A program made the translations under genes and the position numbers. Positions 31,228 through 33,105 of a stretch of DNA of 64,000 nt are shown here, piece by piece. The notes under the pieces were generated by a model. The model was not told where the DNA came from. It saw only the letters and a list, made by a program, of their open reading frames with translations, and did no database searches. The stretch comes from a virus (Duplodnaviria > Caudoviricetes): IMG/VR virus record IMGVR_UViG_3300020577_006105; one strand, written 5' to 3'. Each line of letters begins with the position of its first letter. Within the stretch, counting starts at the first letter, position 1.

Positions 31228-31256
31228 TTGACAAAAAACGAAGTCTGTTGTATAAT
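31228..31256 (+). promoter_or_regulatory. Consensus sigma70 promoter for the tRNA island
   Basis: TTGACA (31228-31233), 17 nt, TATAAT (31251-31256); 5' hairpin GCGATG-AAAA-CATCGC at 31267-31282. Confidence 0.9.
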
Positions 31257-31295
31257 ATGAAGGTGAGCGATGAAAACATCGCGAAAGGAATGAAC

Positions 31296-31409
31296 ATGCG
31301 ATTTAGCTTGAATAACCATAATGGAAGCACACGGTTGGCCTATCAGGCCAATACCGCCGTGCATAATTATCCCAATATGGTTCGGGCTAACTGGGGGTAC
31401 CAGGCTTAA
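31296..31409 (+). CDS. Attenuator leader peptide, Asn/His/Tyr-rich (37 aa): MRFSLNNHNGSTRLAYQANTAVHNYPNMVRANWGYQA
   Basis: SD GAAAGGA at 31283-31289; 12 of 37 codons are NAY (7 Asn, 2 His, 3 Tyr; 9 are NAU); 3' end overlaps the antiterminator. Confidence 0.8.
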   Translation: MRFSLNNHNGSTRLAYQANTAVHNYPNMVRANWGYQA

Positions 31410-31443
31410 TCGTAAGATTGACCAATCCCCAAGAAAGCCCGGC
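31379..31443 (+). promoter_or_regulatory. Antiterminator hairpin of the attenuator
   Basis: TCGGGCT (31382-88) pairs with AGCCCGG (31436-42); TGGGGGT (31392-98) pairs with ATCCCCA (31425-31); inner TTAATC-GTAA-GATTGA hairpin; uses the 5' arm of the terminator. Confidence 0.75.
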
Positions 31444-31468
31444 TCACAAGGTCGGGCTTTCTTTTTTT
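31431..31468 (+). terminator. Intrinsic terminator (attenuator)
   Basis: AAGAAAGCCCGGC-TCACAAG-GTCGGGCTTTCTT followed by TTTTT. Confidence 0.9.
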
Positions 31469-31490
31469 AGATTTGACGAGGAAAAGGACA

Positions 31491-31514
31491 ATGGAGGACA
31501 ACGACAATAATTAG
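31491..31514 (+). CDS. Mini-ORF MEDNDNN upstream of the tRNA-Asn pair
   Basis: GAGGAAAAGGACA-ATG GAG GAC AAC GAC AAT AAT TAG. Confidence 0.65.
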   Translation: MEDNDNN

Positions 31515-31561
31515 CGCGAAGGCGTGCCACTTGATGTGACGCGCTGGAGCGCGAACATCAA

Positions 31562-31637
31562 GGCTCGTGAGCAAGCTGGTAGTTGCAGACGTCTGTTAAA
31601 CGGAAAGGGCTGGGGTCAGAACCCAGGCGGGCCTCCA
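31562..31637 (+). tRNA. trnN: tRNA-Asn(GTT), atypical
   Basis: GGCTCGT/GCGGGCC acceptor, GCAA/TTGC D stem, loop CTGTTAA, CTGGG/CCCAG T stem, T-CCA end; non-canonical G8, G14, T loop GTCAGAA, T73, only 3 WC pairs in the anticodon stem. Confidence 0.7.
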
Positions 31638-31690
31638 AAATTTCGAACTCATACAGAGGTATGGTTAACTTTTTTGGTTAACAAACACTT

Positions 31691-32239
31691 ATGAGTGCAA
31701 GTAAAACACACAAGGTTGTGTCATGGAGAAGAAGGGTAAAAAGATTGCTGATTGAGTACAAAGGTGGAAAATGTATCCAATGTGGTTACGAAGAAGATTG
31801 TCCGCCAGCATATGCATTTCATCATCGAGACCCGAATCAAAAAGACTTGACCATTAGTGGAAAATCATGGTCTTATGAAAGACTTAAAGCAGAAGCAGAT
31901 AAATGTGACTTGTTGTGTGTAAGATGTCATACAGAACTACATTACAAATGGCAAGCAACAAAAGACGACAACAAATGGGAGAAGCACAAGAAAAAGTCAC
32001 CTCAAGAAAAGCAAATTAAGTTATTGTTGATATCGGCTTGCGAAACTTGCAACAAGCAATACAAGCCAAAAAACAAAGGACAAAAATATTGCTGTGCGGA
32101 GTGTTATAGAATCGCAAGCAGAAAATGCGAAAGACCCACGAAAGAGATTTTGATTAACCAATTGAGGTCTATGAGTGTCTCAGCAGTTGGAAGACTCTAC
32201 GGGGTATCAGACAACGCAATTAGGAAATGGCTAAACTGA
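31691..32239 (+). CDS. HNH endonuclease with C-terminal Zn finger and HTH
   Basis: CIQCGY..AFHHRDPNQKD..CDLLCVRCHTELH; CETC..KYCCAEC; SVSAVGRLYGVSDNAIRKW. Confidence 0.85.
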   Translation: MSASKTHKVVSWRRRVKRLLIEYKGGKCIQCGYEEDCPPAYAFHHRDPNQKDLTISGKSWSYERLKAEADKCDLLCVRCHTELHYKWQATKDDNKWEKHKKKSPQEKQIKLLLISACETCNKQYKPKNKGQKYCCAECYRIASRKCERPTKEILINQLRSMSVSAVGRLYGVSDNAIRKWLN

Positions 32240-32241
32240 AC

Positions 32242-32315
32242 TGGCATGTATTTCAACGGTAGAATAATGGACTGTTACTCCATGGATGGTGGTTCGAATC
32301 CACCCGTGCCAGCCA
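32242..32315 (+). tRNA. trnN: tRNA-Asn(GTT)
   Basis: TGGCATG/CGTGCCA acceptor, G73, CCA; ATGGA-CTGTTAC-TCCAT; GGTGG-TTCGAAT-CCACC. Confidence 0.85.
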
Positions 32316-32340
32316 ATTTTGTAGTTAGGAAAGAAAGACA

Positions 32341-32490
32341 ATGGACGACCATCATCATACACAACTGAATAACATGGCGGTCGGACCCAGAAGGCGAGGG
32401 GGTTTGGCTGTGAACCAAATCACTAGGGGGCTCGATACCCCTCGGTCGCCCCAAGTTTTGAACACCGCGCGAGGTGTGGCCATAGCTTAA
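32341..32490 (+). CDS. Mini-ORF MDDHHHTQLNN..., reading through tRNA-His-1 into tRNA-His-2 (49 codons)
   Basis: AGGAAAGAAAGACA-ATG GAC GAC CAT CAT CAT ACA CAA CTG AAT AAC...; first in-frame stop TAA at 32488-32490. Confidence 0.6.
   Translation: MDDHHHTQLNNMAVGPRRRGGLAVNQITRGLDTPRSPQVLNTARGVAIA
32376..32453 (+). tRNA. trnH: tRNA-His(GTG), atypical, with encoded G-1
   Basis: GGCGGTCG/CGGTCGCC 8-bp acceptor plus CCA; TTTGG-CTGTGAA-CCAAA; GGGGG-CTCGATA-CCCCT; G8, G14, C54. Confidence 0.8.
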
Positions 32491-32549
32491 TCGGTTAAAG
32501 CGTCTGGTTGTGGCCCAGAAGATTGAGGATTCGAGTTCCTTTGGTCACC
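32476..32549 (+). tRNA. trnH: tRNA-His(GTG)
   Basis: GTGGCCA/TGGTCAC acceptor, C73; GCTT/AAGC D stem; TCTGG-TTGTGGC-CCAGA; GAGGA-TTCGAGT-TCCTT; G-1 and terminal A not encoded. Confidence 0.85.
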
Positions 32550-32568
32550 CCTGGCGCAGACAGTTTAT

Positions 32569-32863
32569 ATCGACGTAGTGTAATTTTGACAATAGGAGGA
32601 ATGAAAAGTTAGAGAAAGTTGAACACGAAAACATCAAGAAATCCAGCATGAACGCCCAAATATCATGCTTGCAGGCTTTAGAAACGTTGAGCTGGTTGAA
32701 CGCCAGACAGGTTTGGTCCGGATTGTTGGTGAGTATGAAGTGTGAGTAAGGTTCGGTGAGTACATAACCCAGTAGTGAATTTGACGATAGATAGGTAACA
32801 CGCGCCCATAGCATGCAAGCATTGGAGGGCGTACTGTAGGTTCGAGTCCTGCCGTTGATACCA
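32569..32863 (+). ncRNA. Interrupted tRNA-like RNA (about 200-nt D-loop insert, expanded anticodon loop; tmRNA-like topology possible)
   Basis: ATCGACG (32569-75) pairs with CGTTGAT then A-CCA; GTAGG-TTCGAGT-CCTGC T arm; GTGT (32578-81) pairs with ACAC (32798-801); CGCCC/GGGCG stem with a 19-nt loop. Confidence 0.6.
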
Positions 32864-32869
32864 AATTTC

Positions 32870-32884
32870 AGAGAGAGAGAGAGA
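32870..32884 (+). repeat. (AG)n dinucleotide run upstream of the Tyr mini-ORF
   Basis: agagagagagagaga. Confidence 0.85.
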
Positions 32885-32890
32885 AAGACA

Positions 32891-32956
32891 ATGGAAAGTG
32901 ACTATAACTATACAATCGGGGGTGTTGGGGCGACTGGTTGCCCTACCAGGCTGTAA
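32891..32956 (+). CDS. Mini-ORF MESDYNYTIGGVGATGCPTRL overlapping tRNA-Tyr-1
   Basis: GAGAAAGACA-ATG GAA AGT GAC TAT AAC TAT...; stop TAA (32954-56) overlaps the GTA anticodon (32953-55). Confidence 0.6.
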   Translation: MESDYNYTIGGVGATGCPTRL

Positions 32957-33004
32957 CCCTGGCGTCGCAAGGCATTGCAGGTTCGAATCCTGTCACCCCC
33001 ACCA
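32918..33004 (+). tRNA. trnY: tRNA-Tyr(GTA)
   Basis: GGGGGTG/CACCCCC-A-CCA; CCAGG-CTGTAAC-CCTGG; long variable arm GTC-GCAA-GGC; GCAGG-TTCGAAT-CCTGT. Confidence 0.9.
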
Positions 33005-33018
33005 AATTTGTTGATTTT

Positions 33019-33105
33019 GGGGGTGCGCCAGAGTAGGAGAGCTGGGCCAGTCTGTAAAACTGTTGGCATTTGCCTGAGTGGGTTCGAATCCCACGGCCCC
33101 CACCA
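33019..33105 (+). tRNA. trnY: tRNA-Tyr(GTA)
   Basis: GGGGGTG/GGCCCCC-A-CCA (G7.G66 mismatch); CAGT-CTGTAAA-ACTG; variable arm GGCA-TT-TGCC; GTGGG-TTCGAAT-CCCAC. Confidence 0.85.

Follow-up and report, generated by a model that had tools for sequence, protein, structure and literature searches.

A candidate leader-peptide attenuator with codons matching the Asn/His/Tyr tRNA block that follows it in a huge phage

Organization of the locus

We studied a 64,000-nucleotide stretch of viral DNA (Duplodnaviria; Caudoviricetes; IMG/VR record IMGVR_UViG_3300020577_006105), hereafter referred to as the window, and specifically the region in which a promoter, a short leader open reading frame (ORF) and an intrinsic terminator precede a block of tRNA genes for Asn, His and Tyr. 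The window carries giant ORFs and derives from a huge phage. An earlier note on the same DNA had interpreted this arrangement as a trp/his-type attenuator in which ribosomes stalling at NAY codons (Asn, His, Tyr and Asp) would sense the state of the tRNAs with GUN anticodons, the queuosine (Q) family, and induce replacement tRNAs. The features of the leader region are the following.

31200..31227 (+), T-tract, UP-like element, then GGAAC-n-C directly before the -35 hexamer; kept in all relatives and before the sister leaders of a 479-kb relative
31228..31256 (+), sigma-70-type promoter, TTGACA-17-TATAAT, 12/12 consensus match
31267..31282 (+), 5' hairpin P1, 6 bp with an AAAA loop; recurs in each independent fold despite sequence differences
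31284..31289 (+), Shine-Dalgarno (SD) sequence AAAGGA, unpaired in the folds
31296..31409 (+), SD-led leader ORF, 37 sense codons plus the stop codon (31407-31409)
Leader codons 6-9 (N-N-H-N) and 23-27 (H-N-Y-P-N), the two sensor clusters
31303..31311 (+), segment 1, at leader codons 3-5/6; 5' side of the long-range 1:2 helix (anti-antiterminator), which appears in the minimum free energy (MFE) fold of each homologue
31379..31392 (+), segment 2, leader codons 28-33, with an invariant GGGC; its partner is either segment 1 or the terminator 5' arm (antiterminator)
31391..31430 (+), hairpin P3, enclosing the leader stop codon; relatives have a hairpin of different sequence at the same position
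31431..31470 (+), intrinsic terminator (segments 3 and 4) with a U7 tail; present in all relatives, with co-varying arms

The promoter, a consensus site for RNA polymerase of the host type, is the sole 12/12 sigma-70 site within positions 29000-36000, and for the T-tract preceding it we infer an UP-element role. The ATG at 31296 was taken as the leader start because another ATG just upstream, at 31290, is gone in two relatives. Of the 37 leader codons, 12 are NAY (codons 6, 7, 8, 9, 16, 19, 23, 24, 25, 27, 32 and 35), specifying eight Asn, two His, two Tyr and no Asp; promoter, SD and leader are all present in the sequence as the earlier note had described them. Compared with a genome usage of 11.5% for Asn, His and Tyr, this content has a binomial P of 4.8e-4. 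Nevertheless, at least 12 NAY codons were found in 94 of the 127,780 stretches of 37 codons in the six frames of the 64 kb, corresponding to ca. 8 other places, and because these match the density of the leader, the NAY enrichment alone is suggestive and not decisive.

Downstream of the terminator lies the tRNA block, with the following genes.

31562..31637 (+), tRNA-Asn#1 (GTT), non-canonical, with T-loop GTCAGAA, a weakened anticodon stem and an encoded CCA; homologous to tRNA-Asn called in the relatives L006-L009
31691..32239 (+), HNH-type endonuclease-like ORF within the block, with H-N-H-like motifs recognized by eye; Pfam gave only a weak helix-turn-helix hit
32242..32315 (+), tRNA-Asn#2 (GTT), called by ARAGORN/Rfam; its anticodon stem is fully compensated compared with that of L004
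32377..32453 (+), tRNA-His#1 (GTG), with a non-canonical D arm and T loop and an encoded CCA; homologous to tRNA-His called in L008 and L009
32476..32551 (+), tRNA-His#2 (GTG), called by ARAGORN/Rfam
32918..33004 (+), tRNA-Tyr#1 (GTA), called by ARAGORN/Rfam
33019..33105 (+), tRNA-Tyr#2 (GTA), called by ARAGORN/Rfam

When applied to the window, ARAGORN and Rfam called four tRNAs and missed tRNA-Asn#1 and tRNA-His#1. These two show compensatory stem changes with respect to their ARAGORN-called homologues in relatives, and it is by virtue of this homology that the count of two tRNAs each for Asn, His and Tyr holds. The earlier note had listed exactly these six; the number stands, although two of them are non-canonical and the block also contains the HNH-type ORF, a conserved RNA of ca. 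295 nt and three mini-ORFs (see below). The HNH-type ORF is missing from L004, L006, L007, L008 and L009, where tRNA-Asn#1 abuts tRNA-Asn#2, indicating a recent insertion between the two tRNA-Asn genes.

Conservation of the leader among relatives

The nearest relative of the window is a complete viral contig of 479 kb with terminal repeats. The 542-aa protein encoded just upstream has a graded set of relatives, from 97% to 48% identity, and in seven of them the whole arrangement is kept, with the genes for the 542-aa protein and a 111-aa protein followed by a gene-poor gap and then by Ro60. In every relative, the gap contains the Asn/His/Tyr tRNA block preceded by a promoter of the same type, a leader ORF and a terminator, with the leader-terminator unit always directly upstream of the tRNAs. 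A search for relatives with this order of elements and with covariation in the stems had been proposed in the earlier note, and both were found. Other searches were negative: deposited phages matched the window at the DNA level in the tRNAs only, no viral contig contained a relative of a 158-aa upstream protein, and a metagenome scan with a protein profile returned no matches.

The leader comparison included 8 distinct sequences (the window and the seven relatives) from at least four lineages. The promoter, as CTTGACA-N17-TATAA(T/A), was retained in 8/8 homologues, and the start codon and SD were conserved in all of them, the SD being located 6-9 nt 5' of the ATG. The leader frame is the only one free of stops in 8/8 sequences, the other two frames having up to five. 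Leader lengths vary from 36 to 40 codons, with no indels between alignment columns 10 and 35, which fixes the spacing between the H/Y cluster and the GGGC of segment 2. Substitutions showed no third-position bias, and nonsynonymous changes far outnumbered synonymous ones (e.g., 23 versus 4 codon changes), implying that the leader peptide is not conserved as a protein. On the other hand, N7, H24, Y26 and A32 are invariant, N9 is kept in 7/8 leaders and column 28 alternates between Asn and Tyr only, with synonymous variation at N7 (AAC/AAT), at P27 (four Pro codons) and at A32. A conserved Asp codon was looked for across the leaders and none was found. An open and freely varying frame with a few fixed codons has the look of a regulatory leader.

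Alternative helices in the leader transcript

The leader transcript has unusually strong predicted structure (z=-6.3), and each homologue, folded independently, shows the same architecture. Three helices compete within it, with predicted energies of -13.1 (1:2), -13.7 (2:3) and -21.8 (3:4, the terminator) kcal/mol, close to those of the corresponding helices of the Escherichia coli trp attenuator. The terminator stem (31431-31463) has 14 pairs, 7 of them GC, and is followed by T7, confirming the strong U-tailed terminator described in the earlier note. The antiterminator, seen in folds of the nascent transcript cut before the terminator 3' arm, pairs 31379-31392 with 31432-31444.

Comparison among relatives supports these pairings. 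Among upstream sequences, codons 28-33 paired best with the terminator 5' arm in 8/8 homologues, with energies ranging from -12.4 to -22.7 kcal/mol (the strongest, of 11 bp, in L007), and segment 2 follows the lineage-specific changes of this arm. Permutation tests showed stronger pairing between cognate than between noncognate strands for the 2:3 helix (8/720), for the 1:2 helix (2/720) and for the terminator, used as a control (1/720). Along similar lines, 20 of the 46 consensus pairs obtained with RNAalifold have compensatory changes, including pairs of the terminator and of the 1:2 helix (columns 56-65 with 135-144).

We then considered the position of the ribosome, using truncated nascent transcripts, since full-length equilibrium folds were judged the wrong test for a kinetic device; ribosome footprints were modeled crudely. 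In the nascent folds, segment 2 captured the terminator 5' arm as long as the A site of the ribosome lay within codons 3-25, and no longer did so at codons ca. 27-35.

Leaders of other tRNA blocks

The 479-kb relative has ca. 60 tRNAs grouped by amino acid; no Asn, His or Tyr tRNA occurs in it outside the block described here, and tRNA-Asp is located in another block. Each main tRNA block of this genome also has its own promoter and short leader. The array located at 148 kb has the same promoter type and an SD, then a 34-codon leader (L023:291-395:+) and a strong terminator (L023:423-462); most of the leader consists of A, M, I, E, F, V, P and W, for which the tRNAs downstream are specific. 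The array located at 217 kb has a 46-residue leader (L025:12928-13068:-; the unit spans L025:12856-13068 on the minus strand) in which T, L, R, G, S, C and D are frequent, and this leader is followed by a strong terminator and then by Leu/Cys/Arg/Gly/Ser/Thr/Asp tRNAs. The leader of a Gln trio (L042:631-735:-) contains five consecutive Gln codons, with no clear terminator. A 12-codon ORF with two Lys codons at a Lys trio was not counted as matched, and tRNA-Met and tRNA-Gln genes elsewhere in this genome immediately follow a promoter of this type, with no leader in between. Two sister leaders (A and B), each considered as a single sequence, have weak antiterminator candidates of -9.3 and -8.5 kcal/mol.

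When the four leaders were crossed with the four blocks, the diagonal of the table gave P values of 0.0045, 0.0009, 0.0001 and 0.006, while every off-diagonal P was at least 0.33. As judged from these sequences, each leader is enriched solely for the amino acids of its own block, and the Asn/His/Tyr leader is one instance of a general codon-matching rule. Since the four leaders match the four blocks reciprocally, the Asn/His/Tyr content of the leader in the window follows from the tRNAs that it would gate.

This result bears directly on the proposal that the leader is keyed to the queuosine/GUN family, sensing Q deficiency or cleavage of the colicin E5 type and inducing replacement tRNAs as a counterdefense. 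The GUN/Q family has four tRNAs, and the block covers three of them (Asn, His and Tyr), which is a point in favor. NAU codons are the most sensitive to the G34/Q34 state, and the His and Tyr codons of the sensor always end in U (CAT, TAT) in 8/8 leaders, with CAT used throughout one of the mini-ORFs of the block (mini-ORF b), even though C- and U-ending codons are about equally frequent in the genome; the conserved helix in which the sensor codons lie, however, also explains this invariance. The block also adjoins Ro60 and a Y RNA, an RNA quality-control module, and there is precedent for phage tRNAs that replace host tRNAs cut by nucleases, as documented in two articles (PMC10264068, PMC11555353). 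Nevertheless, Asp, the fourth member of the family, is absent from both leader and block (no lineage has a tRNA-Asp among the Asn/His/Tyr tRNAs), and tRNA-Asp(GTC) of the 479-kb relative belongs to another block, whose leader does hold Asp codons. With sister leaders matching their own tRNA sets, no family-specific logic is needed, and a scan of 26 window proteins revealed neither TGT nor a Que-pathway or nuclease gene. We therefore regard keying to queuosine or to anticodon damage, the part of the earlier interpretation that gives way to general codon matching, as quite improbable.

As a side observation, the 479-kb relative has suppressor-type tRNAs with CTA and TCA anticodons (L023 9729-9804 and L026 369-443), a hint that stop codons may be recoded in this phage lineage. 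The TCA tRNA is directly adjoined by a short ORF that starts with M-E-Q-Q.

Proposed attenuation of the tRNA block

Leader-peptide attenuation in the general sense is defined in PMC1183508. The locus has its structural elements, i.e., a short SD-led ORF, cognate codons, an intrinsic terminator, an antiterminator with one strand in common with the terminator, and an anti-antiterminator overlapping the ORF; the genes downstream, however, are tRNAs and not biosynthesis enzymes or an aminoacyl-tRNA synthetase. We consider it probable that this is a ribosome-mediated transcription attenuator with regulatory codons that match the tRNAs it gates. The trp/his-type interpretation of the earlier note would then survive in its core, a translated leader embedded in a 1:2/2:3/3:4 switch with comparative support, without its queuosine keying.

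According to this model, scarcity of charged tRNA-Asn, -His or -Tyr would stall the ribosome at one of two places: on codons 6-9, where it covers segment 1, or on codons 23-25, where it occupies the interval between the two segments and its leading edge does not quite reach the GGGC core. In both cases, segment 2 would be available to take the terminator 5' arm, and the polymerase would read through into the Asn/His/Tyr tRNA genes. With fast decoding, the ribosome would run over segment 2 or be released, segments 1 and 2 would pair again and the terminator would form. The tRNA products would relieve the stall, providing direct negative feedback on the only Asn, His and Tyr tRNA supply of the phage.

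Several observations weigh against this reading. First, an equally good antiterminator duplex was found in 18-35% of shuffled or random controls when the window sequence was considered alone; the hairpin that the earlier note saw sequestering the left arm of the terminator exists and co-evolves in relatives, but is not distinctive in a single sequence, and its significance comes from the comparison among relatives. These relatives represent only ca. 4 to 5 lineages, which are moreover mutually related. Second, full-length MFE folds retained the terminator at every ribosome position, which means that the switch must be kinetic; folding with ribosome footprints, as the earlier note had suggested, freed the antiterminator (up to codon ca. 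25) in nascent transcripts only. In the simple footprint model, a ribosome on the stop codon leaves segment 2 unmasked, and the distance from the GGGC to the stop ranges from 15 to 30 nt among relatives. Third, total NAY content falls to 5-7 of 36-38 codons, around background, in the distant relatives L008 and L009, and the Asn/His/Tyr columns overall are just modestly better conserved than other leader columns. The earlier note had named a lack of NAY enrichment in homologous loci as evidence against its own interpretation; the overall excess does fade, which also weakens the queuosine keying, and only the anchors N7, H24 and Y26 persist. Finally, the nucleotides of the His24 and Tyr26 codons do not vary, wobble positions included, and neither do the flanking bases; in the RNAalifold consensus both codons lie within a conserved inner helix (AUA:UAU plus two compensated pairs). 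Because this helix constrains both codons, their conservation is not creditable to decoding alone.

Such nucleotide-level invariance, around G-CAU-nnn-UAU-C, would fit a structured leader that binds a tRNA or a protein directly, acting as an RNA-only switch with an incidental open frame. The conserved multihelix architecture points in the same direction, as do the headers of the mini-ORFs of the block, which are complementary to the ends of their tRNAs. However, the SD, the ATG and the open frame are kept in all lineages, with synonymous variation at conserved residues, and the P3 region, where a T-box-like element would have to sit, is not conserved in sequence. Neither the T-box nor any other Rfam family matched at E<=1 within 29000-36000, apart from weak hits of leader families that cover only the terminator. 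Direct binding of this kind seems to us very unlikely.

It could also be that the leader region, from the promoter to the terminator, is a stand-alone unit encoding a small gene or a small RNA with codons of no regulatory value, the tRNAs being transcribed by constitutive leak-through of the terminator or from phage promoters of an unrecognized type. The strength of the terminator would fit this alternative, as would the marked structure of the transcript, the lack of distinctiveness of the antiterminator in the single sequence and the 550-nt HNH gene that separates the terminator from most of the tRNAs in the window. The earlier note had stated that an independent promoter downstream of the terminator would speak against attenuation, and no sigma-70 promoter was found between the terminator and the tRNAs; phage-specific promoters of unrecognized type may exist, and this is a further point against the attenuator. 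On the other hand, the leader shows no conservation at the protein level, changes in segment 2 accompany those in the terminator arm, leader content reciprocally matches the downstream tRNAs in four blocks, and the leader-terminator unit is always directly upstream of the block. On balance, we find a stand-alone unit unlikely and retain the codon-matched attenuator as the preferred interpretation.

Mini-ORFs, an additional RNA and neighboring genes

Three mini-ORFs accompany the tRNA genes.

31491..31514 (+), mini-ORF a (M-E-D-N-D-N-N-stop)
32341..32376 (+), mini-ORF b (M-D-D-H-H-H...), its frame running on into tRNA-His#1
32891..32917 (+), mini-ORF c (M-E-S-D-Y-N-Y...), its frame running on into tRNA-Tyr#1

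They share the header AAGACA-ATGGA and contain runs of Asn, His or Tyr, and each precedes the first member of its cognate tRNA pair by 21-79 nt. Mini-ORF a occurs in all lineages as ME[DE], 2-4 Asn codons and a stop, 70-79 nt 5' of tRNA-Asn#1, with AAC and AAT interchanged; mini-ORF b is conserved wherever tRNA-His#1 exists and is absent in L007, which has no tRNA-His#1; mini-ORF c is kept in all lineages, 21-27 nt before tRNA-Tyr#1. The AUGGAGG of mini-ORF a is complementary to the CCUCCA 3' end of tRNA-Asn#1, and the header of mini-ORF b, GACCAUCAU, to AUGGUGGUC of tRNA-His#1, the latter with no covariation. Given this complementarity to tRNA ends, the mini-ORFs may act partly as RNA. An M-[DE]-D-H-H-H mini-ORF of nearly identical nucleotide sequence was also found directly before tRNA-His genes in L030 (minus strand, ca. 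392-494) and L040 (minus strand, ca. 539-644), two metagenomic contigs with unrelated flanking genes, indicating that mini-ORF b travels with tRNA-His as a module. The pattern of mini-ORF c gave nine chance hits in viral contigs, with no tRNAs beside them, and cognate mini-ORFs are not a general feature of the main tRNA arrays of the 479-kb relative.

Between the His and Tyr genes there is a conserved RNA of ca. 295 nt (ca. 32568-32862, plus strand). This RNA has a canonical T arm, and its 5' AUCGACG pairs with a 3' CGUUGAU that precedes A-CCA. Its acceptor and T stems co-vary in L009, as read by eye, and it is absent from the 479-kb relative. Neither ARAGORN nor Rfam called it; possible identities are a tmRNA-like molecule and a tRNA carrying a large insert.

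After the tRNA block comes a second ORF of the HNH/zinc-ribbon (DUF5679) type (33166-33690, plus strand). Farther downstream, a YrlA-like Y RNA (33957-34067, plus strand; 41 bits, below the gathering score) lies immediately 5' of a gene for a Ro60/TROVE plus vWA protein (34159-35781, plus strand), and this pair follows the tRNA block in all relatives. An "RNA repair island" was considered and dropped, given that the 418-aa protein at 38642-39898 was below significance for the T4 RNA-ligase family; its homologue in L006 has a precomputed hit.

One of the relatives, L007, is contig C5 (1.36 Mb) of a 3.8-Mb metagenome-assembled genome labeled Armatimonadetes, with the module at ca. 95 kb. This contig has dense phage-like tRNA arrays at 387-520 kb and scattered bacterial-type tRNAs past ca. 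558 kb, and ribosomal protein L2 is on another contig of the assembly. Two explanations fit L007, a chimeric assembly or a very large prophage, and the latter would give a hint of the host.

Comparison with known systems and implications

Leader-peptide attenuation is textbook knowledge for amino acid operons such as those controlled by trpL, hisL, pheL and leuL, and multivalent attenuators are found among those of enterobacteria, as in ilvGMEDA (Ile/Leu/Val) and thr (Thr/Ile). The phage element resembles the multivalent type in its promoter-proximal, SD-led short ORF with codons for more than one amino acid, and in its alternative 1:2, 2:3 and 3:4 helices, which have similar energy proportions and end in an intrinsic terminator. 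It differs in being phage encoded, in having two codon clusters, the second inside the 1:2 loop, and a stop 15-30 nt past segment 2, and above all in that it would gate tRNAs instead of biosynthetic enzymes, the product being the sensed molecule itself. Attenuation of a component of the translation apparatus is known from pheST, where the pheM leader responds to charged-tRNA supply; however, a phenylalanyl-tRNA synthetase is controlled there and not tRNA genes, and a single amino acid is sensed. T-box riboswitches also report the state of specific tRNAs through terminator/antiterminator control, but they bind uncharged tRNA directly without translation, whereas the phage element uses a conserved translated frame.

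To our knowledge, all the leader-peptide attenuators described gate either amino acid biosynthesis enzymes or an aminoacyl-tRNA synthetase, and a literature search retrieved no published case of leader-peptide attenuation controlling tRNA genes. The novelty would therefore lie in applying a known attenuator design to tRNA genes.

A broader scheme can be drawn, in which a distributed "tRNA-on-demand" circuit would give each block its own codon-matched attenuator, the Asn/His/Tyr block being a damage-response arm induced when host tRNAs with GUN anticodons are cleaved or unmodified. We put it forward tentatively and find it doubtful as a whole. The features cited for such an arm are that this is the only block with per-tRNA mini-ORFs, with paired canonical and non-canonical tRNAs and with a Ro60/Y-RNA neighbor.

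The element spans ca. 240 nt and has a consensus sigma-70 promoter, which makes it amenable to reporter work in a laboratory host, and it could serve as a compact, programmable sensor of a chosen charged-tRNA supply. If confirmed, the attenuator would mean that phages, beyond carrying tRNAs, meter each block of them according to how fast the infected cell decodes. This bears on the purpose of phage tRNAs, that is, whether they supplement codon usage or replace tRNAs lost to host defense.

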